Assembly (NCBI GenBank): GCA_002633005.1
Contig: NMRA01000901.1
Coordinates: 1 to 64,000 of the forward strand
Source: Phoronis australis
Taxonomy: Eukaryota > Animalia > Phoronida
Direction of reading: 5' to 3'
Length of the DNA: 64,000 nt
Numbering within the stretch: position 1 is the stretch's first letter; each line of letters opens with the position of its first letter. Positions 1,812 through 60,851 of the stretch are shown piece after piece. The position numbers and the translations under genes are program-made. A model generated the notes under the pieces. That model did no database searches and was not told the DNA's origin. It saw only the letters and a program-made list of their open reading frames with translations.

Positions 1812-2051
1812 GTGAACCGTTTCTACTCGTCACTTTAATTCCATGGACACTGTATTTTCCATTTAACTCAACTCTCCACCATGGATTCTGCAGGTTGCTT
1901 CGCTTTAAAGTGTGAGAACACGACCGTCCGTTCATGAAGTCTGTGGAAGATTTGCCGTCCATGGCCTTCCTTGCGTCAGCAGTTAAGTTGAAGGAAGGAG
2001 AAACAAGAGACAGTGTCGACGACTGGTTAGCCCATAAGAGTGTGATATTCC
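1812..2051 (-). CDS. Gene A exon 7: N-terminal half of F-type lectin (fucolectin/tachylectin-4/pentraxin) domain
   Basis: ttgtttag|...|gtgagt, 240 nt, phase 1-1. Reads GNITLLWANQSST...KAMDGK...CSHTLKRSNLQNPWWRVEL...VTSRNGS, with F-lectin motifs QSST, A(I/M)DG, CSHT, PWWRV.L. Confidence 0.9.
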
Positions 2052-27250: not shown

Positions 27251-27317
27251 TGAAGAACAGTGTGTGCTCTATGCATTGCTTGTGTTTCGTGAATAAAATC
27301 ATATTCTGCTTCAAAAG

Positions 27318-34039: not shown

Positions 34040-35400
34040 ACCTCTTCTCTATTTATACTGTCACGGCGTTTCGGTCTGTCTATTCTCCGGCCAACGTCCG
34101 GTGTTCAGGCGTTCTTAGAAGAACAAGCACGGATGTGTGGTACATGTACATTCATTGTGTGATTTTTGCAGGATTTGTACCCACGATTCATGAAACTACA
34201 GATAATTCGAGTCCAGCAACTGAACCACTACACCACGGAGTCATCCACTTACTTACAGGAAATTTAATTATACTGTTCAGCCATTCACAACACTTTTACT
34301 GGTGCCAACGTATCGCTTGAATGAATCGTTTTACTCCACTAAATCATCAAATTTTGACGTATCGACGTAAAATCCTTGCAAATTCGTCTAGTTCTTAAAT
34401 AAACGTGTTGTTTTGTTTCACGGTTACGGATATTTAGGTATTTGAACGTATAGTGGCCTACACAGCTCGGTCAAGTTGTGCAAACTTCTAGATTCTGTAG
34501 GCCAATTTATCATGGTCGATCGCAAAACTTTGGGTCTGTTTGGTGATAAATTCGAATCATTCTTCCGTGAAATGCATACATGTGAGATAGCTGTGTGTTG
34601 TACTTTGAATCTTGCGATTTTTTCAGTTCTAATCACACAAAACTCTTGTTATCCCAGCCAGTGCCTTGGAACTCGACCAGGCCCGTCGCGGCCGCCGGGA
34701 CTGGACATCACGAACATATACCAGCTTAAGTAAGAAACTAAACCTCCGGTAACGAATAAACTATACTAGTGAGCAAAAGAAATAGTGTGGACGTAATTAT
34801 TTAGGTGAATTAGCGACGAAACTGCAAATATACTTACTTGTCGGGGGCGGTGAAGTCAAGTTGCCCTTTTACAGACCCATCAGGGCGAAAGTTGTACAAA
34901 AACAATGATGTGAATAATAAATTTGTGTATCTAAATGAAGATTCCCCTATCTCGTGGCCATATCACATAAGTCGAGTTATTTTTTTCACACCAGCTTTCT
35001 GTCAGCAAACACTGAATTAGCATGAGTCATGTGTCAGTCGCTTGTTTGCTTCGCTGAAGGAAGACATTGCCTTGTACTTTTATGTACATGGCTTCCTTGA
35101 TCTTTATCTTGGTGCAACCTGTTTCACTGTCAACTATTCGGATGTTTTTTTTTCCACTGGATGTCGTGTTGTTTCGACCACATATGTTCTACTACTCCAG
35201 ACGAGGTATTACACTCTCTACAACAACTCTTATATTCAGCAATTCTCGTCTACAGTGGTCTTAGTCTTTCATCGATATATCATTTACCACATTCACATGG
35301 GATTTCATAGGAGACATTTTTCTTATTTCCCAATTCAGTTTTTGGTTTCACTTTTGTCAGTCGCCGACCCAGTGTGCCTGAGCTGCGGTATACTGATCCT
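34040..35400 (-). mobile_element. Penelope-like element, left (minus) copy of an inverted pair, interrupted by ~0.7 kb of other sequence
   Basis: Minus translation TLGRRLTKVKPKTELGNKKNVSYEIPCECGK.YID...RIAEY...VEHMW (GIY-YIG); tRNA-like segment 34168-34242; decayed hammerhead 34061-34104. Confidence 0.8.
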
Positions 35401-35930
35401 TCTACAGTTTTCAGGAGGGATATCACATGGCATACTCCAGAGAATCTACCCAAGCAACAGAAAAGCCCCTCACATGTACGGTAAACCTAAGATACACAAA
35501 CCTGATATGCCAATGAGACCAAATATAAGCAACATTGGTTCGCCTTGCCACCAACAAGCTAGAATCCTCAACAGCAAGATATCCCCACTAGTTGTACATG
35601 AAATCCCATGTAAATGTGCTGGCTCATATATTGGTGAAACATTAAGACCACGGGAGAAGAGAATTGCTGAACATAAGAGGTGTTGTAGAGAGGGTAATAC
35701 CTGATCAGGAGTAGCAGGAGACATGTGGTCGAAACAACACAATATCCATTGGAATAACAACCGAATACTTGAAAGTGAAACACGTTGGACCAACATAAAG
35801 ATCAAGTAAGCCATGCACATTAATGTACAAGGCAGGTTCTTCAGTCAGGCAAACAAACAAACGAGTGACACCTGGCTCAGTCTACTTAGGAAAGTTTAAG
35901 TACAGTAAAATTTCCTCTAAATAAATGAAT

Positions 35931-36012
35931 GACACCGTGGTATAGTGTTTAAGGTGCTGGACTCGAATTATCTGTAGTTTCAGAAGACGTGGGTTCAAAT
36001 CCTGCCTCGGAC
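35931..36012 (+). pseudogene. tRNA-Ser(CGA)-like sequence embedded in the PLE 3' region (not a functional tRNA)
   Basis: A-box-like tggtatagtgtttaagg, ctggactcgaa anticodon region, long variable arm and B-box ggttcaaatcc; stems are poorly paired. Confidence 0.7.
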
Positions 36013-36075
36013 AATAAATCACACCATGAGTATACCAATTACTGTATCCGTGCTCGTCCTTCTAAGAACGCGGGA

Positions 36076-36119
36076 TCACCTGACGATGGGCGGAGAATAG
36101 ACCAACCGAAACGTCGTGA
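36076..36119 (+). ncRNA. Minimal type I hammerhead ribozyme motif (PLE-type)
   Basis: Stem I tcac/gtga, core CTGACGA (36080-36086), partly mismatched stem II, then GAAA-CG-TC (36108-36115) with the palindromic ACGT minimal stem III. Confidence 0.7.
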
Positions 36120-36332
36120 CAGTGTAAAAAGACCAAGAGATTTTAATAATAATTGTAATACACCACCACCTCAGAGCGGTTTTAGAAAGTCAGCTACTTT
36201 AAATATATTTTTCTGGATGCTATGACTTGTCGGTAATTTCCTACAGTGTACTTGGACACTACCTTTATATTTTAGTCCAGGAGCGTGTTAAATGTATCCG
36301 AATGTCTATTTGGTGGCTACCGTACATTCCAG

Positions 36333-36596
36333 AAACATTGTATCGTCTTGACACGCTTTCATCAATGGGCTCCCCAATCATCCGTGTCTACGGAGGTAGT
36401 AACGTTGACTTTTCCACTGACGTCATATCAGCCAGCGTGTATGACACTACAGTCATAGCATCACCGGCACCAACAGAAGTACACTCCAGCAATACCGTGG
36501 GATATAAAGAGTACCTTATACATACTGGAGTTAATGTCTTCACGACTACTGGAAACAAGATGAATTTATATTCCAGAATTGTGAATATTAATTACG
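36333..36596 (+). CDS. Gene B exon 6: about 88-aa segment, possibly a degenerate Tie Ig1-like domain
   Basis: cattccag|...|gtaact, 264 nt, phase 1-1; homologous to 3093-3362. Confidence 0.85.
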
Positions 36597-37242
36597 GTAA
36601 CTGCTTGCGGTGAACAAAACATGTATTCCGAGTAAGCACTTGCTGATTATGAGAAATACAACGTACAAATCCGTTCGCCGGATGCCTTCCGCCATCTAGA
36701 GTTGGTGCAACTGACGTGAAAATGTGACGGCGTTGTAAAATTATTCAGTATACGCATGAATTAAATTACCACCCTCCATTAAGGAAATGTGGTGATGTTG
36801 AAAATACTGATTAGCATCCTCTCATGTTGGCATCCAAATTTACACAAGTTGCATTTTTTTCAGTCTTTTGGTATGATCCAATTTCCACCATAATCCAGTG
36901 TTCCATGTATTTTTCTGAAACCTCAGACTTGCACCTTCTCAGGTAATCTGGAAGAAGTGGCTAAAGTGGTTGAAGTCACTTAGCCTTTGTGAAGAACCCG
37001 AAGTTCTTAAACAATTCAGATGCACGTGTCATTTTGAGGTTAAAAACATGTCTAGTTCAGGAGGCATCTGTGTCCAAATTTACTCTTCCGTTAAAGTAGA
37101 CATTTTACTATGATTCTTGGCACCATTTGTTTTAAATTATCGCTGACCGTGCATGTAACAGCACTGAATGGTTATTACCTTAAACATTTACAAGGTCATA
37201 TCGTTTTAGTTTACGTGGATTTAATGTTGTCATTTCGTTTAG

Positions 37243-37482
37243 GCAATGTTCCACTCCTTAGTGCTGAACAGTCGTCAACACTGAGGCTTATTTCTCCGTC
37301 GTTAAACTTGACAGCCGACGCTGGGAAGGCCATTGACGGCAACCCTTCCACAGACTTCATGAGAGGACGATCGTGTTCTCACACTTTAAAGAGAAGCTCC
37401 TTGCAGAATCCATGGTGGAGAGTTGAGTTGGATGGAATATACAGTGTCCATGGGATAGAAGTGACAAGCAGAAACGGTTCAC
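37243..37482 (+). CDS. Gene B exon 7: N-terminal half of F-type lectin domain
   Basis: cgtttag|...|gtgagt, 240 nt, AEQSST...KAIDGN...CSHT...NPWWRVELD...VTSRNGS; 64/80 aa identical to gene A exon 7 by manual count. Confidence 0.9.
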
Positions 37483-38689
37483 GTGAGTGTATTTCAATTT
37501 GGAGTCCACTGAAATATACATTTAATTCAAGGATTTCATTAACGTGCTTGTGTTGTTTTTGTCAAATTAAGGCCAGTTGCCTCAGGTACATGTAAATATC
37601 TAGTGACATTCCGGCAAAATTAGAGACGTGGGCTGCAATTCGTAAAAACAAGAATTTATCGAATAAAACCTGTTGTGTGAAATTCATCATTGAGGGCTGA
37701 ATCAGGTTCTGGATCAGGCGCCATGATCTAACTTGTTTACTAGTAATCGAACTTGAAATTTTTGTTTGCATATTTCATTCTACTTTGGTGTAGACTCAAG
37801 GTAAGGGTCTGAAATGTATGCAAGAGTATGTCATCATTAACGTGTAGGACTGTGTTATCCTATTTTACACGATGTGACCCCAGTGTTAAGGCTACGAGTT
37901 GAGTCTTCGTGGACTCGAAATATCGATTTTTGTCTTGAGTTCGTACTTTAGTCCAGAGGCATTATCCAGAAGAGAGCACTGTATAAAGTTCTAGAAGTAT
38001 TTTTAGTAAAAGTTGGAACCAGATTTTTAAACAAATTCCGTGTATGGAAAATTCAACTACATGTAGTCGTTTTCAAGCCGAATTTAGCGTTTTGAACCTC
38101 TAGTTAGCATAAACAAAATTGCGGCCAAATTGTGAATTTCAGGTGCGTCCATACAGTAGAAATCACGAAATGTCTTACCTGAACACATCATATAAATAAT
38201 TTTTGAGCAATACATAACATATGGAAACTAAAAAAATTAAAACTCCAAAAACTGATTATGCCAATTAGGTACCGCTTTTACCATTCCCAACAATTTTCCC
38301 CAAAACTTTGTCTTCTAGCAGTCTAATTTGAAAAATGAGGTGTGATCACTTATGTCTGCATGGTCAAAAATTATGATAAAGACACGTTTGGACCGATTTA
38401 TCTCATATTTACAGAATGCGGAAAACTAAGTCGTTGGTCTCAAATGCTCATTTAGCACGGTGTCTCTATTTTCACTTAATATAAGGACAAATGTTCATAC
38501 TATTCTGTATTCTTCCATTTATAAAAGTCAAAAATAGTTATTGATAATTAAGACACAGTCCGTTTTCATTAGATTGTCAGTTGTATAAATTGTTTTCAGG
38601 CCAGCGTAACACAATTTTAGATTTCACGTTTTGGTACTTTTTACACGCATGAAGCAAATCGAACTGTTTTCTTGCAAGGAGTCTGGTCG

Positions 38690-41600
38690 TGAGTGTGCTG
38701 CTGGCATGTGGATTAAAAAAGGTGCATCTTAATCCAAATTCCATACATCTGCATAGTCTACCGTTTCATTGTTTCTGGAATGTGCGCTATACCATCTCTA
38801 GGCAGCTGCCTGGAATAGGACTTTATGTCATCACTATGGTCTGTAGTCATGTGTCAGTGTGTGTCCATCCCACATCAGAGGGTGCTAGGTACTCAGATAT
38901 CCATGGACAATGAGCATTTCGCTATACCTTGACTTGATAGTGCACTTTTTTATGTATTTATTATCCTTTACAAACAATTACAAAAAAAAACAAACAAATA
39001 AGTACACCATTCATTCACGCATGCACACCTCAGGAAGACCATTCTCATATCTCGTTTAAAGTAAATATCTTCTACATGAACTTAACATGAACAATAAATT
39101 TTTCCCATTTTGCAGAGAAGCTGTCATGTACAAAGTTGTTATGTGCATTTAATTTTTCAGCATTATAGTATTCATAAGTTTTTGTAACGAACTTGAGAAA
39201 ATTAGGTATATTTTTGTGACATCTCTCTTTGTAAATGTACTGTTTAGCTAGTGGAAGTAAAATGTTAAATAGGAAATCTTGCGTCTTGTACAGTCCAAGA
39301 ATAACAATATCGTAAGACAGACAGTTGGGAAACTGAATGCCACACTTTTGAAGTAGCTTTTCGAATTCCTTCCAGAAATCTTGTACAAAGCTACATTCCC
39401 AAAAAAGGTGTGACAGCGTCTCTGGAGCTTTATTACAAAAGGAACATAGATCAGAATCCCTAACACATATTTTGACTAAAAAGGTATTTGTTGCAATAAT
39501 TCTATGTAGTATTCTAAATTGGAACCATCTAATATGGGGATCCTTTGTAATTTTGTAAGGTAAAGCATATATTTTCTTCCAATCTAAACTATCTCCTAGC
39601 TCTATTTCCCATTTAGACTCTGACTTAGGTTTCTTAACGTTATTAAAGACTGAACAGATATGTCTACAACCCTTCAAATCTTTCCGTAAGTGAGTAATTG
39701 CTAAAGGCATGCAAGGAGAGTAGACATTAACACTTTTAAATTTACTTTGAAATAGACTTTTTTGAAACCTTTTTAGAACAGAAACAACACCATTATATTC
39801 TACAAAGTTGGTTTTCACGTCGAACCTATTTTTCATATTGTTTAGACTAACAAGATCACCATCAGAGGTATACATATCTCTAATAAATCTCAAGCCTTTT
39901 ACAAACCAAGGCTTATAAAAAACACCTGTGCCTCCGATCGCCAAGTTACTATTAAACCACAAAGGTTGGTTCAAAAAGTCCTCTTTACTTGCAACAATTA
40001 TTTTCTTGTAGAAAGATAACATACTTTCAAATACGTCGCGCCAGTAGGAATTACCAATTAGAGTTAACTTCGACTTAATAAAGTCATCTCCAAATGAAGC
40101 AAAATTCTTTAAGAACGGGTAGAGTGCGTACAGTAATTCACCACTTTTAGACGCAGGGCTTTCCAGATATCTACGGGCCATAGCGAGTTTTAAAGCTTTG
40201 CTGAAAGTATGCATATTAACCATTTGAATTCCCCCTCGATCAAGTCCTAAACAGGCCGTAGTTCGTTTAATTTTATCATTACGGGCCTGCCATACAAATC
40301 TAAAAAATGTCGTATTCAATTCACCCAAGACTTTCACTGATGGATTTGGTAAACTTGACAACAAAAAATTAAGTTTAGAAATAGCTAATGTTTTAATTAC
40401 CGTTACTCTACCAAACGGCGTTAAATTTCGTCGACTCCAACTTTTTAGTAAAGACTTGATCTCAGTTATTCTTGCAGTGAAGTTCTTATGCGTCATACTA
40501 TCCAATTGAGTGTCGAAATCCACCCCCAAAAATCTAAAAGATTTTTTTGTCCAAGACAAAATTTCTTTTGTAGGAATCACGTCATCACTACCAGTTTTAC
40601 TTCCAAACCATATGGCTTTTGTTTTATCCACATTCACTTGGAGACCGGAGACACTAGCAAACAAATGTAGTACATTCAGTGTGGTAGTCAATGACAAATT
40701 CGACCCATCCAACGTAATTGATGTGTCGTCCGCATATTGCGAAATCAAATATTCCTTATTCCCAGCAACTACACCAGCAATATTTTTATTATTCTTGATT
40801 AAATACGCCAAAATCTCCGCGCACAATATAAAAATGTAGGGAGACAATGGGTCACCTTGTCTGCAGCCACGTGAAATATTGAACCAAGAAGATGGGTGAC
40901 CATTTACGACAACACAGGACTTAATATTACTGTAAAAGACTTTCACCCACCTTCTGATCGACCAACCAAAATTAAGGAACGATAAAGTTTTTTGAATAAA
41001 ATTCCACGACAATGAATCAAATGCTTTCTCAAAATCAATCAGTAAAAGCAATCCAGGTTTGTTAGCTGCCTGGGCATAAAACATTAAATCATATAGCACT
41101 CGGATATTTTCGTTCATATTTCTTCCAGAAACGAAACCTGTCTGGTCCTTACTGATTACTTTTCCCAAAACGGATTTTAACCGTTCAGCTACTGCCGAAG
41201 AAGCCAATTTATATGTCACATTGAGCAAGGATATGGGTCTCCAGTTTTTCAAATAATGTTTACTTTTATCTGCTCCCTTAGGGATGCAGGTGATCACTCC
41301 CTCTTTCTGTGTTGAGGATAACTGGCCAACAGCAAAACCTGTATTAAGTGAGCGAACAACGAAATGTCCAATGTCAGCCCAAAAAAATTTCAAAAATTCC
41401 ACTGAAAAACCATCAGAGCCTGGGCTTTTGTTGTTTTTCATTTTTTTCAAGCATTGTGTGACTTCTTCATATGTAAGAAGACCTTCTAATTTTTCTTTTT
41501 CTGTCTCATTCAGCTTGGAGACACAAACATTATCAAGAAGAGTTTTTAAAGAAGTATTGTTAGTATGTCTATATTTGTATAGATTTTCATAAAAAGTTTT

Positions 41601-42510
41601 GGTTTCCTGAATAACCTCTTCTTCACTATTGGTTTTAGTATTGTCAGATTTCCACAAAAAAGGCATAAACTTACTTGTGTAATGCCTATTTTCCAAGTGA
41701 AGAAAATATTTGGAAGGCACTTTGATCAGATTGTTAAAAGGCATCATGTGGTGAGGGAAAGGCTTCTGGTTTCACGTTCTTGGAGAGTAGTTAATGGCTT
41801 GCCACATCTACAAGTTCTGGTCAAGTTGTATAGTCTGCAGACAAATGCTTCTGAAAACGTCATAGTTTCCCTTGTGAGTTCACCAATATCCAGGTTCTTA
41901 AGCAATTTGTGATGCTATTGGTAACGTCTTCCATGATGATCGTTTCGTGTGACTGGCAAAGTACGAGGTGGTGTCACACCCGGTCAGGGCATGAAATGCT
42001 AAAAAAGATGTTGCCAAGTCGCTTCGTAATTTGTTGAAAAGTGCTTCAACAGGGGCATGTGTTGGAGGTGCGATACCAGAAGCAGTAGAACATCAGTGTC
42101 CTTGGAAGATACGACTACTCTATTAAACTGGCTGTGGACAGCACGCTATGCCATTCTTGCATTTCTTTTTCATGTGTGGATTTCAGAGGCCTCTATGAGT
42201 AGTATCCTGTGTTTAGGACCGTTTTCATGAATGAATCCGCCACAAGTCTCCAAGGCTTACGATCATTAATGGGGCAAGAGGGCGTGTCATGAAGTTGAAT
42301 TGTTTCAGGACTGTCGATGTGTTCTGTTAGTGCTTTTGCAAGTAAAAATATATTTGCAGTGCTCAGTGAGCCTTTCGTTTCAGCAAGAGAAAGGGGGACC
42401 GGAAGAAGCTCGTGTTTGAGCGCGGACAGCAAATTCACTGGCCAAGCTGCCTCATAAGCTGCAATAAGACAGCAAAGAAAAGTCCTGTCTGCCTTTAGAA
42501 CTATTTTCTT
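38690..42510 (-). mobile_element. Academ-like DNA transposon remnant (XPG/PIN nuclease plus Cys-rich C-terminus), split by a LINE
   Basis: Degenerate minus translation ADR...LKHELLPVPLSLA, VVVSSKDTDVLLLL, FHALTGCDTTSYF, AFVCRLY (42510-41724), resuming as AHYQ...DVGW...SCLEMV...CRC...GLRCT (38941-38690). Confidence 0.7.
38949..41716 (-). mobile_element. 5'-truncated L1/Tx1-clade LINE with uninterrupted RT ORF, poly(A) tail and TSD
   Basis: ORF 39072-41747 has KSPGSDG, WRPISLLN, DFEKAFD, GCRQGDPLSP, QYADD and CSFC...ETLSHLFWEC. AATAAA and a short A tail lie at ~38950-38962 on the minus strand. Direct repeat gcacttt at 38942-38948 and 41717-41723. Confidence 0.95.
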
Positions 42511-45500
42511 GTAACCCAGAGCCGCTCCCAGTGCTGATCGAATCTCAAAAACTTGGAGAGACGATCAGTTAAACGCGACCTTACGGGTTTATGAATAACA
42601 AGTACATGTACTTCTGCTTCAAAACTAAACGATGTCCATAATGTCGAAATAAATGTAAAAAAATATCCCTTTAAACAACAGAACCGGGGGCTACCGCTAC
42701 ACTACTGCACAGATCCAGCAGGTGCCGAGACAAAGACGGCCAGACGACTGAAACTCCGGAGTCAAAATCAGATAGGCTTACACTACATGCGTAACCACCA
42801 AACTGAAACGTGTGCATCTTAGGAGAAATATATTTGTGTTTAACCTTCGATCAATCAAGCAACAATGACATGTTCAGATGCTCGTATGCCGGCTCACACA
42901 CTATAGTTAACATCTTTTGACATCACTAGTCAAGTTAGGAGTTGGCCAAAATGACGGATATTGTTCTCGAACTGCATAACGGCTGTCAGGATTAATCACG
43001 CCACATCAACAATATTTAACCATTCGTTTCGCACAATTACTTGAGCTATAGACTAAAATACATTCTACACGGCAGCGTGTTGTCTGATAAAATGGCGATT
43101 TGGAAACGCAAACGAAGCTGTTTCAAGAATGCTACATTGTGATTGGTCAGTTAAGTCGTCAGTCATAATCCTGGCGATCAGTCAATTTTGTGAAATCTAT
43201 GGATCGCAGGTCTGGCGTTTTACTGTAGGTCTTGCGATTTATAGTACACTGTTGGTCAGTATGATTAGATGGCCCATGTGTATTCACTCATCTACAAATC
43301 ATTAAGTTGTCTGTGATGTTAGCACTGTCTAAGAATGCGTTTAAACGCACCAGCTCCGCTCGCGAATAAGTTTTGCAAACTGGGAGAATCCTCGAATTCA
43401 ATGGTTACATGAATTGCGCCGGTAATAGTGCAGGCATCCGTACATACGTTGCGTAAAGCCAGTCACCCAGCTATCCTCATATTTCAGCTAGGAACTACTG
43501 TGTGGTAATCTTGCATAGATTTCTGCTTTTTATCTCGTTGAAAAACTTTTACCCGCACCACTATATACATGTAGAGCTAACAACCTTCGAGGCTCCATGC
43601 AAAATCTGAGAGTCAATCGACACTCACCTTGCACGTAGAAAATGCCAAAACAATTTGGCAGCAAAGATACAAGTCGTAAGAAATTGCTTCGGTACTTCGG
43701 GAATGAATTAAATGTGAGACGTCTCGTAGAAAGTTCTGGAAATGACTTCCATCGGCAAGGGTTTGATTTTGGATTACTGATACATGTATATATTCTTTAC
43801 CTGTACTTGTTGCGTCACGATGTACACGTGTATACTGGTCTGCAAGGTGTTTTGAGAGTACTCAGGTACATTGGCATGTTCTACCAAAACAAGTTCAGTC
43901 ACGCGGGTCAGTTACCGGGAGGACCGCTGTTTCAATTCAGGAGGAGATACCGGCAGTTAGTTCAAGTACTGACGTGCAGTACTTCTCATAAAACACGGTC
44001 GTTATATGATTCAGGAAGTGGCCAAACGGGTTGCAGTTACATGAATCACGCATTTCAGTAAAATTCAACGAAAAAAGAAAAATACAAGGAAATTAATACA
44101 ACGGTATTAATGACATGATCAAATTTTGTTTGATGTAAACGTTCAAGCTGAGCAATGAAACACGCTTTTAGAGTTTCATTTCGTTGTTGTCTCATGCAAC
44201 AAGAGCATAATACATAAAAAGACATAAAAGTCCTTTATTTGATTGTCCCTCGTGCAAAAAGTGAAGCATTTTAAAATCAATTCAGCATTTTTGAGAATAG
44301 TGCTTAAAGCCTATCATCTACTAGCTTCACTTCAATCCTGTCAGGTCCTTAGCCAGGATAACGCAATGTGTGGTTCAAATTTCTGAAACACTGGAGTGTC
44401 CATTAAAAAAATAAATAGCAAGCGACGCACTAACTTTTCAATGCATTTTGGCAAGCAATTCAAACGCAACCAATACATTTTAATTCTTTCACCCTGGGCT
44501 TTATGTTCTCAAAAAACGCCAGTAAGTAACTCTTTGTTGTTGGGGACATGTTTCAGGACCATTCTGACAATTTGCCTGACCTGTAGTGCATGTAAATGTA
44601 CCTGCTCATACGAACGTGTAAGGTACGTGCCTGGCCGTCCAAAGTCTACGGGACCCGTCAGTGATGGTTTTTATACAGAGTTGGGATTTTTGTGTTCATG
44701 TTCGTTCAGGAGATGTGCTGTTTTTAATTGTTCATCAAAAAGTAAACAACATAGGTTACTTTGTTGGCAAGGTGTTTCTCATTATCCTGTGTCGAGCGCC
44801 AACGGGCTACTTCTATATTTTGGCAATGCCCGCAAAACCGTGTGTGCGATGCTAACGAGAGCATTTCTGTGGGATTACTTGCACGCTATTGTTGTCATCA
44901 CTCATGTATACCCCGCCATCACAGCCTTTATCTGTGTATGCAGTCGGCAATGTCGATATACCGTGACCATTCATAAGGTGCCCGTAATGTGTACAGCTAG
45001 CTACTGGGTGCGTTTGCCCGTTATCCGCTAATGACTGCAAAAACACACTGTTTTCAAGCAAGTCCAGACCATGCATGTTGTATTAGGCATTTACTAATTT
45101 GTCAAGGGCTTGACTTCATTGTTGGAAAGAACTTTGTCGTCAATAACGGGATAAAATTTCAGTGAATATACATGTAGTTTCTTTTAATCCCTTAATGTCT
45201 TCAAAAGGTAGTATATTGCAAAAAGTTGAAATTATACACAAATTATGTAACATGTACATGTATGTGTTTCACTGCTATCCGCTCAAGACTACAAAAGCAA
45301 ATTGCAGCAAGTCCAGGCATACATGTATGTTGTACTCGGCATTTACTATTCGTATGGGCAAGGGCGTGAATTCATTGTTGGATGGAACCTTGTCTTCAAT
45401 AACAGGAATACATCTCATCTCCTTCAGCCCTGAGTGAAAGCGATAGCACGTCAATTTTCAGCAATCCTACTCGTTTTGGTACTAAATTTGACAAAAAACC

Positions 45501-47338
45501 TTAATCGCCTTTGGTTAAAATTCATATTGCAAAATAGATGCAAACTACCAGGAATTGCCGAACGTATGAGCGCTGCTGTTCTTTATGTTTTGCTACCGGG
45601 ACACGGCAACTCGCGAATTACATACACCCCCAGCAGTTGGCGTGTGTCAATGTAACAGGAGAATAATCACTTGTGAAATGAAATATTTTCAATTATTAGA
45701 CAAAACGTATTTTAGAACGTGACAAAATGTACAACAGATACGCCGAGGAGTGTAGTGAACTGTTGTATATAGGCGGAATGTCGACGATGGAAACTCTTAG
45801 TGTCAGAAGGATGACGCAGGGTTTTTTATACCGATGTCAAAAGAATTTCAGAAAGATCTTGTTGTTTAGTCTTGCTTTAATGACTCTTACTTCCAACTCA
45901 GCAACAAATCTAAAATGGCGGGGTAGCACTCCGCTCCAGATCGTGGCACGTGAGCCAGAATGTTATGATATTTGTCCTACGTACGCATTTCTATACGATT
46001 CAGCAATGTGTACTGGTGACTTTGTAATAATGTGTTTTAACAATCTAATACGTGTTTAACACCTTTGATACTAGGGGTTTGAGCTGTATTACTTGTTTTC
46101 CAATGAATATGATCAATTCATTTTATATTAAAGGCGAAATATACATGAACGTGGTGTTAGTCATTCCCTGATGCTGTACACGTTTCACCATAGTTTTGGC
46201 CTAGTGGTTGACCGAGCGTCATTGTTTTCCTTCATATCTGTGCTTTCACCTTATCGTCGTCCCATGCCAGTGTCATTGCCGTTTAGCGGATAATTGGGGT
46301 TGCACCTCTTATATCGAACTTGTTGATCGTTCCTTGTCTGCGAGGTCGTGCACCAATGACTCTGATTTGCCATCAATACACCGCGTTTTCATCGACCAAA
46401 GATTTGTTGGTAGACCTAGGCCTACTTGTTTCAGAAAACTCTGAACAGGCAGTAGTGCCCACGTCAGGATTTTCCACAAGAAAACATACTGAAAGTCTGA
46501 TTTCTGCTGACTAATGGAGAATGGTAACACACAATTTTACATGCATTCTTTATATTGTTTAACTAGTACATATTTTGCATAGCAGGTACAAGCTAGGCTG
46601 TGCTTTTACGCGGGGCCATTCAATCGAACCCCCGACTTTCCCCTGCCTAAATGTTTCTGGTATACATGTAAAGGTGTACGACTTCCGAGTTTATTCCAAT
46701 TCGGGCATTGTATAGGCTTCTACATATACTTAAAAGTGCAGGGTTTGCTTTTAGTCGTCAGGTTGAGCTATTTGTGCCAATTTGCATTCTATTACAAAGG
46801 AACCTGAACGCTAATTCCTCGTCTCTGTGATTATAATTAGAAACATAACATACAGCGATGACAAGTAGGTTGACAATTGTCAAATGTTTTTAAGGACGAG
46901 TTTGAACCACCGTAAATCACTCAACCGTATCTAGTAAGAAACGCCACGTGACGTTAAGAAATAACACTGCATTATGCGACAATGCGAGTCCCCAACGTAC
47001 GTCTATAGTGCAAAGGTCACCCATTTACAGAATTTTTAGTTTCTGATATACATGTACATTAGCAAAGTTAGGACCATGCTAATAATCTTCAATTTGGAAT
47101 CACCCTTATGTTATAACCAAAATTGAGCATAATAATTGAAAATACACTAGGGTTTATAGGAACGTTCTTGTTGTGTGATCCGTGGCAGAATTAGGAAGTA
47201 CATTAGCTTCCACCTTTGCATTTCAAGAAATTGTAACAGCGCGGATGCTGCTTCATACACATCTCCTTAAATCGCTGGTCACCTAGAGCTGAATCATCAA
47301 TTGCTAAACGCCATGTGTGATATCCATTTCCAATTCAG

Positions 47339-47545
47339 ACGACTGCAAAAACACACTGGATGGTAGAGACTACATGGGAACAGTCAGTGAAGGTAGAAAC
47401 GGTGAAAGGTGCAAAATGTGGAAAGACACAAAATATACTCTTCTCCCAGAGAATTATTGCCGGAATCCTGATGGCGAGCCAAATGGACCGTGGTGTTACC
47501 CTACGACTGGAGGATGGGAGTATTGTGACGTGAGTCTATGTTCAG
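47339..47545 (+). CDS. Kringle-domain exon inside the gene B intron that splits the F-lectin domain
   Basis: caattcag|...|gtatgg, 207 nt, phase 1-1. Reads DCKNTLDGRDYMG...C.MW...NYCRNPDGEPNGPWCY...WEYCDVSLC with all six Cys. Membership in gene B is uncertain. Confidence 0.85.
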
Positions 47546-50500
47546 GTATGGAAATATTGTACAGGTGGTGACTAAAGTCTATGTTGCGAGTCACATTTGA
47601 CCCCCGAGTAATGAAACCACGCAGCAGTGATGCTATTTTTTCTCTAATTGATTAAGACCTTGGTATTCTCCTTTAACACAAGTAACAATGCATTTAACAT
47701 TTCATCAACCCCCTTTACCATGGGTGGTTAGAAGTGTTGGTGCCACTAGTGACAGTACACGCCAAATGAAAGCAACCTCTTTCTTACAACAATTAATACA
47801 ACGACGGTTATGTTTTCGGAAAAAAGAGGAGAATCAAATACATTTGTGCCACTTTCAACACTCGTAGTCAAGTGAACGTGCCTTCGTTTGTGACATAATG
47901 TTCTTTTGAAGGTACATTGATTGATGAAAGTCCTTTTGCGACAAGTCATCGAACTACATGTATTGAGAAGCCTAACGGTTGAGTCTTGGATTTTCCATAA
48001 CTAGCAACGATGTTTTATTACCAAAAATACGCTTTGTGTTTATTAATTTTCTCTACTGATAATACAGTTCTCGATTTTATACTAAGCCATCAATTTACAC
48101 CTTACATAATACTTGAGGTACTACTTTCAATTTGGGACATTGTGTTTATTGGAAATTCAAGCACAAAAAGTTCGATAGACTCAGTTGCTTGAGATTGTGA
48201 AATTTGAAATCGTGGTCAAACAGCAACTGCTGAAAACGCAATTATGCATCAACATTTTCTGTTCCAAACCACATCTTTTTGGTCGTTATAGTCAGTGCGT
48301 TGTATTGACCTTTCGTTTTCGGATTGGGTTTTCAAAATATACATGTAGCTAAAGGAATCGAAATGGAATGTATCTTAGCGCTGAAACTTGAAGCACGTTG
48401 TCCAAAGCCAATTACGTAACTCTCTGTAAGAGGAGGTATATGGGCAACAAGTCTTCATAGACCATAGGCGGATTAAGGAAGGGGTTGCGGCAGCCCCCAA
48501 TTCAGACATTGTCCGACTCCGACAACGGGCGCAATCGTAACGGTAACTATTTGGCTAAATATTGCTACTGCCGGTCGATGTGTGCGTGGTATCCCAGGCG
48601 ACTGCCACTGTCGCTGCGCCATAGCAATCAATTTCCGTCGTCTGCTTAACTGTGCTAAGAAAACTATTAAGACATGTTTTCGGAAGCTGAGTGACGATGA
48701 AGAAACACAAACTGAAATGAATCCTCAGAAGCGCATAATTCGCTCTTTGTGTAACATTTAAATTCAAACGATTCCCCTTTGCAACCGCATGGTTAAAGCC
48801 AGTGCGAAAAGTGTATTTGTTCTTTTGGGCAACTTAAACAGGTTAGCGCGAACGGTGTGAGCCATAAGTACATGTATGTCTCTTAGCATATTATTTTTAG
48901 TGCATGCGTGATGGTGCAATAGAAGAACACGCGCCATTTTGACCAAAACGACGTGAGTTCTAGTAGGTGCAATGTTGACAAATTTTCCGTTGTTTCACCA
49001 ATTCTCAGTGGTTTTTTACTCTATTATATTTCAAGGCCCGGTTGCATTAAAGTTGTACATGTACGCCGTAATTGCAACAGTGAAGTCGCATTATCACGCG
49101 TCACTTTGTCATTGTTGAATAATGCCCTGACGTCATGCAACAATCAAACTTATCCAGCGGATAACTTTTGAAGCTTTGTGCAGCTCAACCCTGAAATTAA
49201 GGAAAATCATTGCTTATGGAAGAAAAAAATAAAATTTTCCTCTGGGCGTAAAGGGGAAGCCACTCCGACACCCCCCATTCGGCGCTGTTCGCATCTAGAT
49301 ATGTGCTTCGTGCCAATGTCTACAAGACAAAATATTTGGGCCTCTGATGATATGATAGATCTGCCATAACAGACAATGGCATAAATTGCGTGAAACTGGT
49401 TAGCGTTTTTTGATCAAATATTAGAGCTTGGGTACAACTTGCAAAACTTTCATGAAGTTTTATGAACTCATGGCTACTTTTTAATTCCTGACATTCCCGC
49501 ATTCGCGGAATAAAAGTAACCCTATTCGGTAGTGTGATGGTTAACAAGCAACAGGATTATGAATTACCGAGAAAACTGTGGGGGTAAAAATGGTAGAGAA
49601 ATTGCACAAAGTCTTTTTTGTTGGTGAAAGCCTTTCGAAAAAACGCTGTTTTTTACTAGAAAGCTGCTACCATTTTTATGAAATTCAATTAAGATCAAGT
49701 GTATATTTTTTATAAGTTTACATGTAATTTTTCATGACGTTGCATTACATGTAGTCACAGTTATGATGAGGCGTTTAGACTTTGATAACGGCTATAACAT
49801 CTTTTTTCAGTCATCCTATAGTGCCATGGTGATCCGTCATAAATGACAGAGTTGGTTTTGTTTCTAGGTACACATGTCAAAATATAATTTAAGTATATGT
49901 AGCATGATGCCAACAACCTGAGCTGATGGTGGTTTATTAAGACACATTTCCCAAGTACCACGATTAATTGAATATGATTATCAACACACATACTGTGTGA
50001 CCAGGATCCTTCTGAAGATTATAATGTAGGAGTTCAGTGGTTGCCCTTCGAGCTTCAAGTTTATTGTTCAGCAAGCACAAAAGTTCTGTTAAAATGCAGA
50101 CGTGGCGAAAGTGCACGTGTCTGGTTTTGTTCAGGACCAATACTTACAATGTACGATAGATGAGATCGGAACTATGTATATACATGTAGGATTATTGAAC
50201 AGATTTTCAACTTACGATTTTGAAAATTTTAACCGAAGTATCTATAACGAGTAAGTTCTACTATGATGCTCACTTTCCGTTAAACTCAAGCGCCATAGTG
50301 TTTAAGTATCAGTCCACGGATCCACCGACAACTGTGCAGCCAACAAGCGGCAAGGTGGGGGGTCAGCCATTCAGATCCATGTTTAGTTTGATAGATTACA
50401 TTAGGGATGAGAGAAATTGGGTGAAGTATGACACCACAAAGTTTGGTGGTTTAGAAGATACAAGGGGAGTGTTCTAGGGGGCAAAATGAGGCAATTCCTT

Positions 50501-53500
50501 GATGTGGAATTAGTCATTTTTTAACCAAATTCTCTACTCCAGTTCCTGCTTCAAACAGAATCGTTTCTGAACAATTTTGATATTACATGATAGGTTCATG
50601 ACTCAGTAAAAACGTCACCGACAGTAAATTATCTGTTACCATGGTAACACTGGAACTGTTTCCGTGGAGGTAAATTTCATTCTTGTGAAAAACCAGCAGT
50701 AAGTTGTACCCTTATAGCGAATCTGCCCCCGCGAGAAAACTAAAAATAATAACATGGACATGTAGAAGACTCCATAAAAACTTTGTCAGCCCTTCAGGCA
50801 GGCTTGTTAATAGGTGTCTGAAATTCACTATTTTCAGACCGTGTATGTAATTTGTCATGTTAAACCAGTCACTTGTTGTGCGTCGTTTCTACGCATTAAA
50901 ATGCCGTGTTATAATACAGCAGTTAAAGATTTGGTTTTGCTTAAATGTTTTAATTAATTTCAAGGAAACTAGCATTTCCAACTAAAATATGAAATTATAC
51001 TAAATTTGTTCATCCAACTCGTCTGAATACCATACATAGCTTACAATGCGTTGGTTGAATGGTGGCCATCTAATGTGCGGGTTTGCGAATTTATCTATTT
51101 ATCTGTCACTGCCAGTCGCATGGAATGTGGTATTTCTACAAATTGCGGAGAGAAAAAACTTTGGAAACTCTTTGGAAATGCACAAAGAGAAGAGCCAGAC
51201 ATTTGAGCACCTTATAAGAGTAAGGGGAGGTGATGTGGAGGTGGAACGTGTCCTCCTGAGAAGTAGTCTGTCTCAGTGTCTGCCTCGGAGGCAGGTTTGC
51301 AGCAGGAGCTACATAATCTGCCGTAGAAGATTCACTTGCCCGAATCATGTGTACAACCTTGGAGATATATTGGCGTCGCGAAAGACACTGAGTAGGCCTA
51401 CATCCACTGCACACTAGAGGATAAATCTAATAGAGGTCTGCAAAATGACCAGAGACGTTAAGTAAAGGTTCAACGTCTTGCTTCGTGTGAGCTCAGGTAG
51501 GAATCACCAAACCCCAGGGTCTAACCCTGAGGAATATTTTTAGAAGCACGTCATTCATGTAAAAATACTTTTATTGACACACCGTGATTACTTGTACATG
51601 TAACTTGGGCCTTATTGCACAATCACATCTTATTCAACTATGTTGATGTTTATGCAACTACATGTATACATTGGCAGGTAGTCATCATAACTTTTCATAA
51701 CAACCAACAAATGTGTAACATGACTTCTGCCCATGAACTACTTTTAGAGACTAGGGAATATGTTATGTTTGCCAATGAAGTTCTTCGATTATGAAGTTAA
51801 TTAAACATGCTGAAGCCGTCAAAAATATCAGTGCCTTCACTTTAGCTTGGTATTAATATTTTTTGAGCCAAAATGGCCACATTAAATTTAATATGTTTAT
51901 TTTTTTCATTAATACAACTTTAGGACTTAGGAAAGGCTTATACTGAAGAAGTGGCTTCTGTTGAAGCTGGAGGCCTGCCGATTATTAGTAAAGGTTGGGT
52001 AAGGAAAAGTTCGCAACCAGCCAGAAGGTACCCTTCTAGACAACTAAGTGAGGGGGCTAGAGAGAGAGGCCGAAAAGTCTACTCCCAGAAAATATGTCAA
52101 AGATAATTTGTAACTTGAGGAACAAGTCGGGGGAAAAGTATTTGCCAAAAATTACTGGCTTATACCACAAGAGGTCCAAAGTAATTTGTTGAGATAGGCC
52201 ACACTCAACAAATGTGAGGAAACTGGGACAGAGGAAGTGGAGTATGCATTGGAAGAAGCAATGTGCGATTGTCAAGGATGTAGCATTGTAAAAACTCAAA
52301 GGGAGGAAACAGTACAGTGCCTGGACCTGTAGATACTCTGGCTTATCTGCTAAATCCAGCGGTGGCATTATTGTGTCAGCACAGCTGTGTAGGGAAGTAG
52401 GCTTGTGTGTTTCTGACCACTGTACTGTTCCTTTTCCTTGAAGGTGCCTAATTGATCTGAATTAATGTTTCCGCATTTTATTTACCATTATAGATTTTTG
52501 TTTGTAAAGGGTATATATTACTAAAATTTGAGCACATGTTAGGCTGGTTATGTTAACTTATCTTTCTGCCTGGGTTATAAACCTTCTATCCATGAGGTAA
52601 TAAGTTTTGATTTAGACCATTTACGTCTATAAACTTTGCTCAGTTTGTTCCTTATCCAGATGGGAAGCGATTTCTGGAGACCATGCTGTGTGTTTAAAAT
52701 CGCACACTATTAGACTGGTCTCTAGCAATTGCATATTGCCAGATCTTTCAGATCTTTCAAGGTTCAGAAATTGCTCAAAAGTGACCTGAAAGTAATACCT
52801 ATTTCATGAAGGTAAAAATGTCTAAATGAAAAGTTGTTTGATGTGATTTTAAGCGAGTTTATATCCACTTCAAATGATTTTTGTTGCAGTACTGAAAAGT
52901 ATTGGCACATTAGCTCTGGTGGCTCCTTGTTTTTTTTTGGCAAATTGACCATTTTATGGTTCCCATGGGCAATTTTGTTACTGATCTAGTATGTATGTAC
53001 AACTGTAATCGTAGGGAAATTGTAATGCAAACCATGTTGCAAAAGTATTTTTTCATGACCATTTCATTGTAAAAATGCTGCCTAATTGGAACCAACAAGC
53101 CAATTTTTCATTCTGTGGTGGTTAGTTTTGATAAGAACATTGTCGTGGTAAATACAGCTACCTCAAGTTTGTGAAGAAGAGATTTCCAGTGTTGTCAGCG
53201 ACATTGCGAAATCACTTTTTCCCAGTGAGACTACATCACCTTAAATGTAATTCCTTGACTTTGTGGGCTTTGTGTGGTTGACTCTGTCCTGTAGCAATTG
53301 GACTGTCGAAAAGATCTACAAGGCAATTTTTATTAGAGTCATAACATTTGCACTTTTGACTGTAAATTCATCTTTGCGTTGTATAACGAAAACATATTTT
53401 GTAGTACACAAGTCTCTGGTTGGTATTTTATTTTTTTTCACACGGAAAATTTTGAGGTAGGCAATTTTCCAATGAGATAAGATGTGTGATCTTCCAATAA

Positions 53501-53695
53501 GTGATATCTTTTAAAAAACCTGTGCAGAATTTGATTTTTACTCTTCATTTAAAGGAGAATAAATACGTTAACCTGCATTGTCTAGAAATTTTACTCAAAC
53601 TACATATTACAGGGTTGGGGATTGGAATCTTAATACAACTGAGTCTGAACCCGTACCATGAGCAATACAACACAATACACGGATATAAACATTTG

Positions 53696-54867
53696 CAGCC
53701 GATTTCATAAAGGTGGTTTAAAGTTAAACCTGGTTTAAACTGGACTTAGACCAGGTTTAATAATAATCTGCATTTCATTAAGATGGTTTAACTTTTAGAC
53801 CAGTGGTCTTGTAAAACCTGGTTGAACTCCAGTTTAGACCTGGTCTAAGTCAGTTGTCATTTCACCAACGAGGTCTATATCCTTTAGACCTGCATTAAGA
53901 TCTTAAACTATGTTTAACTTTAGACTTGGTCAGACCCAGGTTTAACTCTTAAATATGTCAGACTTGCATGGTATAGGTACAACTGAACGATGCCACGGTG
54001 TGCAATTGCGACGCAGTTTTAGAGCGGAAATGGACTATTTACAATATTCAGGTTTACTACGACATGAGATCAAACGTAGCAGGGGCGGATCCAGGATTTT
54101 TTAAAGGGGAGCGGACGGTCAAGGACTTTTTGAAAGGGGGGACCAAGTCAACAATTTGAAAATTATAGATTTGATATCATTAAAATCAAGGGAAAAAGGG
54201 GGCTCCGAACCCCTTGACCCCCCTGGATCCGCCTATGCGTAGACCAGTACGTGCTGGAGTGTGTCCTGCAGATTCCTCAGAATACGACTGGTCGAGCAGG
54301 TCTCATCGTCGCAAGCCCTACGGATTTGACTTAAGACAGCATCCTCTGATTCTTCTGACTAAGTTCCACCTCCACTGTTCTCCGATTCAATGTTGCCGGG
54401 AAGGGGTCTTGCCCCCCCTTTGGCCGCGAAAAATAAACACTAAAATAACACGGAAATAAATTTGGGCATTTATCATTTTACATCTAATCATCAGCATCTT
54501 CTTTAATGTGTGTGTGTTGGGCACAAAAATAACATTTTTCCTCATGAGAAAAGCTTTTAGACCTTTGTCGCTAATGTCTGCACTGATTCTACTGGTGTAT
54601 GCCATTCTATACCCACGTGATCAAGGTTTCATTGAAACACTTCAATAGTTTCTTTGTTGGGTTTACCCAGCTCGACACAGTTGGGTGCCTTTGATACTTT
54701 AAACCTGGTTCTATTGAACCAGCTCCCTGGTCTAGCAAAACCAGGCTTTCAGACTTTTAAACCATGTTGGTGAAATGCAAGTTAGGTCTAAAATTAGACC
54801 AGGTTTAGGAAGACCAGGTTTAAGTCTTAAACCTGGTTTTGTTAAACCACCTTTATGAAATCGGCTG
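53696..54867. mobile_element. PIF/Harbinger-like non-autonomous element
   Basis: Perfect 26-bp TIR cagccgatttcataaaggtggtttaa; 3-bp direct repeat ttg on both flanks; subterminal (a)aacc(a/t)ggttt / gaccaggt repeats; Myb/SANT-like remnant RQRSKSFSHEEK on minus at ~54570-54535. Confidence 0.85.
54080..54237. mobile_element. Nested MITE (hAT-like ends, 5-bp TSD)
   Basis: caggggcggatccagg / cctggatccgcctatg; TSD cgtag at 54075-54079 and 54238-54242. Confidence 0.85.
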
Positions 54868-56604
54868 TTGGTGTTTAGGCTCCACGGAAAGGATTCGTGT
54901 TCGCGGTAATAGTTACTAAGGTGCGTGGTCATTGTTTGTGGATAATTTGGGATTCCTCTTTTGTGGTCATCCACGGTAAACCTGGTCGCATAGAGAACAA
55001 TATATTAGCATCTTCATTGTTCCCGTTGTTAAAATAAAGATAGAATGACGACCACTTATCGGCAACGGTCTGATGTACGCAAGGTTCTATATCCATGCGA
55101 CCTGTGTTGTTACATCCAACAATGACACAACAGAGGAAAGCAATGATAGGACCGATGGACGAAAAACATGCGACGAGTTTCCACTGACAGTGGTGGAGTT
55201 TGTCTTGTCATTCGAATGTGTTTTAGAGAACTGCAAACCCGGTATGCGGTCTTTTGTATTAAGTCGTGCGAAAAATTGCGGTCATGCCACCAAACTTATC
55301 ATTCATTTGATATTACAATGCATTGCATGAAACTTTGATCAACAGAACATCTGTGTGTGAAGAAATACCCATGAGGAAATTGCAAGGTATAACAACTGTA
55401 AATCAAAATAAGCTACATTTGTCGAGTTCATGTCTAACCCTGTTCACTGTGGAGGACATAATCGGGCTTTTTACAAAATGGAGCCATGTATGGTATTTAG
55501 TGGACAAATAGGCCTAAGTGGTAACTAGTAAAACATTCAAAACATTCAGGAGGAACAAATTTGTTGCAAAATATCGAAAAACATTAAGGACAATCTCATT
55601 TTACGGTGTTCACGCATCGATCTCAGATATATGAAAAATTCTCATTTTAGTACATTTGAGGTACCAAAATGTATAATTAATGAACAGGCTGACAAAGTTT
55701 TTATTTTATGCAATAACAGTAAAATGTTGTGTCAACAATTTGACCAAGTTTCATTCTCGTAGCAGGGGGACAGATTTGGTAAAGCAGTGTAATGAACATA
55801 ACCTCAAAATGGCTTAACGGGGCAGTGTAGTAAAACTACTAAATGAGGGTGGTAAATCGCAATCGTGTTTCAAGACATCTGTGTAACAATCTATAGGCAC
55901 CACTAAACAATGCCAAGTGAATAATAGTTCAATAGCTTTCATTCAAGGAAAAATAAACAATTAAAACTGGACAGTTTTTATACTGTGAAAACATGGCTGC
56001 GAAGCCTAAAATGTGTTTGAGCCTATAACTTGAAAAAAAACGTAATATTTTGAGGAACTATTTTACCGCTGTTTATAGATCCCATAGGACTACCTATGTG
56101 CCAAATTTTATGAAAATCGGCTGAACCCCACCTTGCCGCTGGATGGCTGTTACTCTCGTGGACTAGTACTTAATTGCGCTTGCGCTCAGCTGTCATGGCG
56201 GAGCATAACTGGTCATTCTATTTATTGTCTTTTGTCTTTCACTGTACATGTATGTTTTAATATTTAAGAATTACAACTCTCAATTTAAACAAATATAACC
56301 GCATGCGCTGCATATGCATTTGAATGAGTGTTGCGCTGTATGATACTTGTCCAATAGAAACATTTCGTTTAGATCGTAATACCTTAAAGATTTTTACGAT
56401 TGGGGAGATCAATCGCCTCAAAACGGAGAATATATTGCACTTAGAAGTAAACTTCATATGGGACTTTGCTATCAATTTGGAAATAGTTTTGATTTTCGCA
56501 CTAACGAGCTCATTATACATATTGCGGTAGTAAAACATGTAATAACCAACTCAAGTGTAGCTTGGTATATTATCACAACCAAAATACCCGCCTATGTACT
56601 CAAG

Positions 56605-56850
56605 GTCTGACTGAGTCGCTCAGAGATTTCCAAGTTCGGGTCTCAAATACAAGTGAAACACCACCAGCGACCTCTACTGACGTTCTGTGCAAACACTACA
56701 CCAACACCATCAGTGACGCCACTACTGTGTACATAGCTTGTGATCGTCCAGTGAGTGGGAGATATATCTACATCACCAAGAACGGCAACAGCAAATCAGA
56801 AACGCTGTCTTTATGTGAGGTGGAAGTATTCGGGACCCCAGCGCTTGCAG
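56605..56850 (+). CDS. Gene B exon: C-terminal half of F-type lectin domain
   Basis: ctcaag|...|gtattt, 246 nt, phase 1-1, LTESLRDFQVRVSN...C...CDRPVSGRYIYI...LSLCEVEVFG. Confidence 0.9.
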
Positions 56851-57396
56851 GTATTTATCCGAGACTGGTTTGCCTGGATAAGGACAAGCCGTGAATGATC
56901 GAAAATATCATTTATGACGTAATTTTTGGAAGTTAAGTACGAAAGTGACTTTGCAAGAAGGACTCGTACAAAAAAAAACTCTGGCTAGAATGTTAAGAAA
57001 TTGATTACAAATTCAAAATATAAGCAACACTAGAACAGCATCAGGAAAAGTATCATGACAAAACAGGTTAGGTACATGTAGGTAATTATAGAAAAAAGAA
57101 ATGGTGGTATAGGTTAGAATAGTGCACCGTATCACAAAAAGGAATGAATTCTGACCAATGATGTACATGTAAGAGTATGGTACATTTTGTAATAATACTG
57201 AAGTGAAAAAGTGAATTAAATGGGAAGTGAAGTAAATGATTCCTAGTTTCATCGACTTCTATTCTATAGAATGATTTTGCATGAGTAAGAGCTTTATGCT
57301 ATTAAGAAAATGGGACTTCCCTGATTATTTTTGTTTAGTGTGTGTACAAATACATGTATAACACATAGGTTTGTCCACATTGTTTCTATATTGTAG

Positions 57397-57642
57397 CCTC
57401 CAGCACACTCACTACAAGAGTGGACGTGGGTGATGGAGTGACACTAACATTTGATGGGCTAGAGCCATCTGGTGTCAGATGGCAGAAAGACAGTCTTGGG
57501 TTTTACGCCGAGGTCTCCATAGTTGGATGGAATGACAAGCTGGCTAACACAATTGATCCAGTTGAAGTGGGTCATGGCGGAGTGTACACTATATACAAAT
57601 CGCCTGGAAATGTTCTTGGCATCACCCGCTTGGTCGTCAGAG
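57397..57642 (+). CDS. Gene B exon: Tie-type Ig2 domain
   Basis: ttgtag|...|gtaggt, 246 nt, SSTLTTRVDVGDGVTLTF...RWQK...GGVY...ITRLVVR, resembling Tie2 TLTMTVDKGDNVNISF...RLIVR. Confidence 0.88.
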
Positions 57643-59571: not shown

Positions 59572-59703
59572 TATGCCCAAGGGATAAATACGGCGTTGAT
59601 TGCACTGAGGATTGTCCACAATGTGAGAATGGAGGCATTTGTCACGACATCACTGGGGAGTGCATCTGTCCACCTGGGTTTATGGGGCACAGTTGTTCTA
59701 TAG
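59572..59703 (+). CDS. Gene B exon: Tie-type EGF repeat 1
   Basis: gttgcag|...|gtgaga, 132 nt, CPRDKYGVDCTEDCPQCENGGICHDITGECICPPGFMGHSC; not in the ORF track. Confidence 0.93.
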   Translation, partial: YAQGINTALIALRIVHNVRMEAFVTTSLGSASVHLGLWGTVVL

Positions 59704-60701: not shown

Positions 60702-60851
60702 GTTGTGGAGGTAATCTGTTTGGAAGTGACTGCTTATCGAAGTGCTCCGAAGTGGACGATGAGCAGGGATGTCGGGGGAAATATGTGTGCACGATAGATC
60801 CATACGGATGCTCCTGTGTTACTGGATTTAAAGGAGTGACTTGCAGTGAAG
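60702..60851 (+). CDS. Gene B exon: Tie-type EGF repeat 2
   Basis: gaaag|...|gtaaga, 150 nt, CGGNLFGSDCLSKCS...GCRGKYVCTIDPYGCSCVTGFKGVTCSE; DPYGCSC is characteristic of Tie receptors. Confidence 0.93.

Follow-up and report, generated by a model that had tools for sequence, protein, structure and literature searches.

Layout of the split lectin domain

The window analysed here is a stretch of 64,000 nucleotides (nt) of Phoronis australis DNA (assembly GCA_002633005.1, contig NMRA01000901.1, positions 1 to 64,000, forward strand) in which an F-type lectin domain is split by an intron that holds an exon for a kringle. The question raised by this locus is whether the kringle belongs to the lectin protein, and whether its splicing controls what the lectin binds. 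An earlier interpretation of the letters alone, called the sequence-only reading below, had proposed a switch in which inclusion would graft a kringle into the ligand site and skipping would give the plain lectin. The nested lectin-kringle design is real and transcript-supported, and the splice switch is not supported.

The unit consists of three plus-strand exons of phase 1-1 with AG/GT ends: the N-terminal half of the lectin domain (N half; 37243..37482, 240 nt), the kringle exon with its six Cys (47339..47545, 207 nt) and the C-terminal half (C half; 56605..56850, 246 nt). Each length is divisible by three and every junction is in phase 1; the coordinates, the phases and the six-Cys kringle inside the lectin-splitting intron were all given correctly in the sequence-only reading. 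On inclusion the split codon encodes His and is followed by the kringle, on skipping it encodes Arg, and the frame is open in both forms. The kringle exon matched Pfam PF00051 with 51.3 bits (cut-off 34.3; E 1.5e-13) and spans 66 residues from first to last Cys versus 79 in plasminogen kringle 1; a single-sequence model of the kringle alone had a mean predicted local distance difference test score (pLDDT) of 43.

Each lectin half on its own matched F5/8-type lectin families weakly. A search of representative proteins with the N half gave 754 matches, the best 150 of which were examined as a set biased to tandem lectins, and 468 domains of proteins from this search were used to build an F-type lectin profile of 155 positions. 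The N half corresponds to profile positions 25-83 (E 1e-16) and the C half to positions 86-155 (E 2e-12), so the two halves are complementary and without overlap, and when joined by script they scored as one lectin domain (111 bits). In all six frames of the window, the only other lectin match was the N half of a paralogue, gene A (minus strand, 2051-1812), the next best reaching 3.5 bits, and tblastn and the kringle profile found no further lectin halves and no second kringle over the 64 kb. With a single N half, kringle and C half, the layout is not that of two tandem lectins, and the earlier observation that no other lectin half-exon flanks the kringle holds.

The lectin is broken three residues past the Arg aligned with Arg79 of the eel agglutinin AAA. 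The loop that holds Arg79 and Asp81 is termed CDR4 in the main text of a review of F-type lectins (PMC5712786). The break had earlier been assigned to an RxDxxxxR fucose loop; the position stands, in CDR4 after Arg79, and the intact motif does not, since neither the Asp nor the second Arg is present in either splice form.

Inclusion of the kringle exon in RNA

Three raw RNA runs labelled with the same species (X6, X7 and X8) and a contig set from another study (X5) were aligned to positions 37050-57040 at 88% likeness, and X6 and X7 were aligned a second time, at 90% likeness, to positions 37430-57429, which include less of the first exon; 18-19% of the reads of each run were used. At 88% likeness the joint from the N half to the kringle (37482>47339) was found in 7 reads of X6 and 9 of X7, with 7 starts in each, and the joint from the kringle to the C half (47545>56605) in 18 reads of X6 and 6 of X7, with 16 and 6 starts, respectively. 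At 90% likeness X6 and X7 gave 5 and 4 reads for the former and 18 and 6 for the latter, and the C half was joined to an Ig-like exon (56850>57397) by 12 and 9 reads. Both kringle joints had GT..AG borders, and all first mates lay on the minus strand, as a plus-strand transcript gives in most stranded libraries. A contig in X5 also ran from a kringle with 17 mismatches over 169 bases into a C half with 25 over 200, indicating that a diverged copy has the same exon order. The inclusion of the kringle between the lectin halves, for which the sequence-only reading had put forward a count of the junction reads, is borne out on both sides in X6 and X7.

The joint that would skip the kringle (37482>56605) was absent from the 15 of 27 joints listed at 88% likeness and from the 15 joints listed at 90% likeness, which went down to 3 reads. 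Summed over the two runs, 16 reads (N half to kringle) and 24 reads (kringle to C half) supported inclusion versus no listed skip joint. With 3 reads needed for a joint to be listed in a run, skipping would escape both runs with a probability of 0.53 at a level of 15%, 0.28 at 20% and 0.04 at 30%. The RNA therefore argues against skipping above about 30% in the sampled material, while lower or tissue-specific skipping is possible.

X8 contained almost no exon reads though repeats were covered, so that expression was sample-specific among these three samples of one study. Read-through of the kringle donor (47546-47849) would add seven codons before a stop, and 47849 is the start of five X7 molecules; read-through of the C-half donor (56851-56894) would add 14 codons before a stop. 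Short secreted forms arising in this way are possible, and the five X7 molecules may be copies of one.

The sugar site and the lectin fold

The fucose motif of F-type lectins is described as a His followed by Arg-x-Asp-x4-Arg/Lys (PMC5712786, main text), and the basic triad as His52, Arg79 and Arg86 (main texts of PMC5712786 and PMC12221842). In an alignment to AAA (1k12), the equivalents of His52 and Arg79 were retained in the N half. In either splice form the Asp81 position is Gly, the Arg86 position is Ser, and the vicinal Cys82-Cys83 is absent; the latter alone is not decisive, since this pair is also lost in some active tandem lectin domains according to the same review (PMC5712786). In the skipped form the Arg of the split codon sits four residues past Arg79, not seven or eight. 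The R-x-D/E-x4-R/K motif, which 337 of 530 N halves from the database carry (337 of 567 when the Nucella gene model P0001, described below, is included), is absent in this gene. As Asp81, Cys82-Cys83 and Arg86 are missing in both forms, skipping would bring back no canonical fucose site, and its product is not the plain lectin that had been envisaged; with no skip joint listed either, the proposed splice-controlled ligand switch finds no support. An N-G-S glycosylation sequon lies directly after the Arg79 equivalent in both this gene and gene A, and a glycan at this position would likely cover the sugar pocket.

The calcium motif is given as h2DGx with Ser49, Cys146 and Glu147, and the disulfides of F-type lectins as Cys50-Cys146 and Cys108-Cys124 (PMC5712786, main text). 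Here the calcium motif is retained as AIDGN in the N half, with the Ser equivalent to Ser49 before the first Cys, and Cys146-Glu147 falls in the last strand of the C half. The Cys50 equivalent in the N half and the Cys108, Cys124, Cys146 and Glu147 equivalents in the C half were all retained. By alignment, the sole Cys of the N half would pair with a Cys of the C half, and this Cys50-Cys146 bond would span the kringle. Judged from these residues, the domain reads as one in which the lectin fold is kept and the sugar site is lost or changed.

The Tie-like ectodomain and paralogous genes

The lectin-kringle unit belongs to a longer Tie-like ectodomain, likely that of a cell-surface receptor, a point that goes beyond the sequence-only reading. 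The Ig-like exon joined to the C half in RNA (57397..57642, plus strand) had a weak match to Pfam Ig_2 (E 0.19) and no useful match in the PDB. It is followed on the same strand by two EGF-like exons, the first of which (59572..59703) had its best solved match in residues 189-230 of the Tie2 chain (EGF1; E 6e-11) and the second (60702..60851) in residues 235-278 (EGF2; E 9e-7). The first is predicted to be linked to the gene by phase and open frame, and the link of the second is likewise a prediction, as the links seen in RNA run only from the N half through the Ig-like exon. Four further plus-strand exons upstream were revealed by comparison with the inverted paralogue gene A. One of them (36276..36596), encoding about 106 residues of no family found, is 72% identical to its gene A counterpart and would be linked on the grounds of phase and paralogue; its model had a pLDDT of 43. 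The other three are small (25130-25202, 27318-27466 and 33720-33769) and encode a Cys-containing module that matched no family; its pattern makes it a candidate LCCL-like module, and single small exons gave no profile or structure match. In total, ten exons from 25130 to 60851, each with AG/GT borders, can be joined into an open frame of 604 codons. Up to the end of the window there was no sign of a membrane or catalytic exon, and the product is therefore called a Tie-like ectodomain and not filed as a Tie kinase.

Gene A is a head-to-head inverted duplicate of this gene (1812-13350, minus strand, versus 22460-37482, plus strand) with six collinear exon blocks, and the two are separated by sequence that includes a 90-base N gap (16035-16124). 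Its lectin N-half exon (1812..2051, minus strand) encodes an 80% identical protein and has the same phase-1 donor at the same codon, after which the gene leaves the window at its left end. The 106-residue exon of gene A (3094-3425, minus strand) has four extra bases at its 5' end, and the acceptor that corresponds to the one in this gene looks out of frame; an in-frame AG was read by eye about 36 bases further in, and gene A may be damaged or may splice at a different acceptor. Most N-half reads (X5-X7) matched neither this gene nor gene A fully, and at 5 of 10 listed variants they agreed with gene A. As these majority reads fit neither gene fully, a third, more strongly expressed paralogue is indicated. 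The nested design is common to at least one paralogue.

The intron between the N half and the kringle contains a long interspersed nuclear element (LINE)-type reverse transcriptase open reading frame of 899 amino acids (39075..41771, minus strand; RVT_1 E 2.4e-35), which is a passenger in the intron and no part of the protein. A broken LINE is also present in an intron of gene A (4596-6453, minus strand). In the second intron, the repeat-rich region 49000-56200 had deep RNA cover with many differences and, in three runs, a plus-strand GT..AG joint at about 51497>51925; it had no Pfam match and probably represents a degraded transposon whose transcripts come from other copies. In a subset of the intron open reading frames, 14 of at least 64 residues, there was no Pfam match.

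Proposed architecture and alternative explanations

With the kringle spliced between the halves, the encoded protein would carry a kringle in the CDR4 loop of the lectin. The halves would close through a disulfide of the Cys50-Cys146 type, joining the exons on either side of the kringle, and would fold round the insert into one barrel. The kringle, closed by its own first-to-last disulfide, would then bud from the face where sugar normally binds, and the whole unit would sit near the N-terminal tip of the Tie-like ectodomain with the kringle as a protein- or glycan-binding head. We consider it probable that the insertion is fixed, that the halves fold round it, and that the kringle is presented on the former sugar face near the ectodomain tip. 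Judging by the residues kept and lost, the lectin is likely to serve as a mount for the kringle and not as a splice-switched sugar sensor.

Several observations weigh against this interpretation. The gene was expressed in only two of the three raw RNA runs, only 18-19% of the reads of each run were counted, and a skip joint with replaced letters could go unseen among 24 such joints beyond those listed. The reads were counted at 88-90% likeness and most N-half reads came from the third paralogue, so junction reads from this mixture are not assignable to this copy one by one. Mean depth over the kringle was about 22 and 18 versus 49/60 and 31/37 over the lectin halves, the deficit in X6 lying mostly in the 5' part of the kringle (about 7 versus 35); this low cover fits diverged paralogue kringles and may leave room for kringle-less paralogues. 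An orthologue in another species was found neither in the homologue searches nor among the best 150 of the 754 matches. The age of the intron, discussed below, rests on protein breakpoints and not on genomes, and the breakpoint is one residue off.

If the kringle were a regulated cassette exon, included in the sampled tissues and skipped elsewhere or at a low level, the gene would make two receptor heads, of which the skipped one would be without a canonical fucose site. The exon is symmetric, skipping preserves the frame and leaves a product that scores as a single lectin domain, and the detection limit is loose enough for skipping to be missed with a chance of 0.28 at a level of 20% and 0.04 at 30%; expression also varies by sample, with X8 almost without exon reads, and the F-lectin bindins of oysters are described as alternatively spliced (PMC5712786, main text). 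No skip joint appeared among the joints listed at either likeness, however, as against 16 and 24 inclusion reads, and without Asp81, Cys82-Cys83 and Arg86 fucose binding would not be switched on by skipping, making a cassette unlikely. Inclusion of the kringle could also be accompanied by a barrel that does not close, either because the halves swap between receptor chains or because the kringle alone folds, the split lectin being a spacer in decay. The degenerate sugar site and the difference between kringle and lectin depth would suit such a protein, but the calcium motif, both Cys pairs and all core strands are kept across the halves, and the N half of gene A, 80% identical with the same motif, suggests a maintained fold; we regard an unclosed barrel as improbable.

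A still smaller chance is given to a misassembled genomic copy or an orphan kringle, with the junction reads derived from paralogues elsewhere in the genome. The introns are repeat-rich and most N-half reads come from the third paralogue, yet the reads from kringle to C half join exactly at the exon start of this copy, where the X5 contig has 20 other letters, no splice site is damaged and the frame is open. The order of the exons in RNA cannot be a product of misassembly, and the nested design would still exist in the paralogues. The orphan exon, the nested gene and the two tandem genes that the sequence-only reading had kept as alternatives are unlikely with the kringle spliced between both halves, and a nested gene is rejected on the direct RNA joints on both sides of the kringle and on the 14 intron open reading frames that gave no Pfam match.

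Origin and possible significance of the insertion

A symmetric exon can enter only an intron of matching phase, and in a kringle the first and last Cys are bonded, which brings the ends together and suits insertion into a loop. Three incomplete Saccoglossus models stop four residues past the Arg, and one Saccoglossus and one Ruditapes model jump from this point of the loop to the next domain. In oyster bindin, an intron is placed mid-way in each lectin domain, at a site not further specified (PMC5712786). Together, the gene A donor, the Saccoglossus and Ruditapes breakpoints and the bindin intron suggest that an old intron may be present at CDR4 of invertebrate F-type lectins. We infer that exon shuffling brought the phase 1-1 kringle into a phase-1 intron already present in CDR4, and that the gene was then duplicated with the kringle insert in place.

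In the Nucella gene model P0001, about 37 tandem lectin N halves were found, each ending just past the Arg79 position; this is a repeated half-exon or a prediction artefact.

To our knowledge, exon shuffling nearly always puts modules between domains. Here a transcript-supported module lies inside the ligand loop of a domain, with matching decay of the host binding site, so that one binding function would be replaced by another at the same surface, and the design of a lectin barrel as scaffold for a foreign head is testable. For annotation, such proteins would show up as a kringle and two pieces of a broken lectin. A more tentative idea, which we hold to be possible though doubtful, is that the CDR4 intron is a reusable socket into which invertebrate receptor families drop whole binding modules, a dead lectin becoming a display scaffold, and that paralogues or isoforms of the Tie-like family with the loop filled, empty or carrying diverged kringles vary recognition. 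Were the loop to take other modules in other phyla, the CDR4 intron would be a general diversification route for invertebrate receptors.

Relatives and comparison with known systems

The best 150 of the 754 N-half matches were multi-lectin proteins with no close relative among them. A kringle motif followed none of the 567 N halves in these proteins, and kringles occurred in one of the 150 proteins, outside its lectin domains. A folded insert was seen in 1 of 679 lectin domain matches, in the metagenome protein P0140, where a complete ricin-B lectin domain lies inside the F-type lectin domain in another loop, after the strand that follows CDR4; the F-type fold therefore tolerates inserts. Homologue searches among longer proteins found nothing for either lectin half or for the second EGF exon, a result of little weight; a metagenome scan gave a single decayed 24-residue match (L001), which was uninformative, and an Atlas search with two upstream exons gave no usable match. 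Among the papers listed by literature searches on this design and its precedents, none described a kringle inside an F-type lectin in its title or abstract opening; a 2015 Glycobiology survey of architectures lies outside this scope and may list lectin-kringle proteins. The main texts of two reviews mention indels in CDR loops and do not contain the word kringle (PMC5712786, PMC12221842). Domain insertion by symmetric exons is already known, and a kringle in an F-type lectin loop is without a published description found.

The best solved matches of both lectin halves were eel agglutinin AAA (1k12) and striped bass MsaFBP32 (3cqo). The calcium motif, His52, Arg79 and both structural Cys pairs are shared with these proteins, whereas the Phoronis domain is without Asp81, Cys82-Cys83 and Arg86, has a sequon after Arg79, and carries the 66-residue kringle in CDR4. 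The fish F-type lectin gene also differs in the place of its intron, which is described as near residue 123, at the base of the barrel, and so not in CDR4 (PMC5712786, main text).

Two consecutive exons match EGF1 and EGF2 of Tie2/TEK (2gy5) in order, so that two of the three EGFs were seen; the exon before them is a candidate Ig domain with a weak match. The window showed no third EGF and no Fn3, membrane or kinase part. In the Tie2 domain order, a first Ig domain stands at the place taken here by the lectin-kringle unit and two unnamed modules, and no Tie-type N-terminal Ig1 was found ahead of Ig2, as RNA joins the lectin C half straight to the Ig-like exon. Tie-2-like proteins have been reported on starfish coelomocytes (PMC13409769).

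Like the kringles of plasminogen and HGF (PF00051), the kringle has six Cys and its core motifs align; unlike them it is about 13 residues shorter, is encoded by one symmetric exon, and is nested in a host domain and not placed between domains. An Arg of plasminogen kringle 1 that belongs to the lysine site is replaced by Gly here according to the alignment.

In the gelatinases MMP-2 and MMP-9, fibronectin type II modules are inserted in the catalytic domain, an example of the class 1-1 exon shuffling of Patthy. There too, a small, disulfide-closed, kringle-related module was put inside a domain by symmetric exons, but the host is an active enzyme, whereas the host here is a lectin with the insert in its own binding loop and a degenerate sugar site. 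The receptor phosphatases of Biomphalaria SudRes1, with a galactose-binding domain and MEGF repeats, are likewise clustered paralogous receptors in which a lectin-type domain precedes EGF repeats (PMC12297450, main text). Unlike SudRes1, for which the words kringle and inserted are absent from that main text, the EGF exons of the Phoronis gene match Tie2 specifically.

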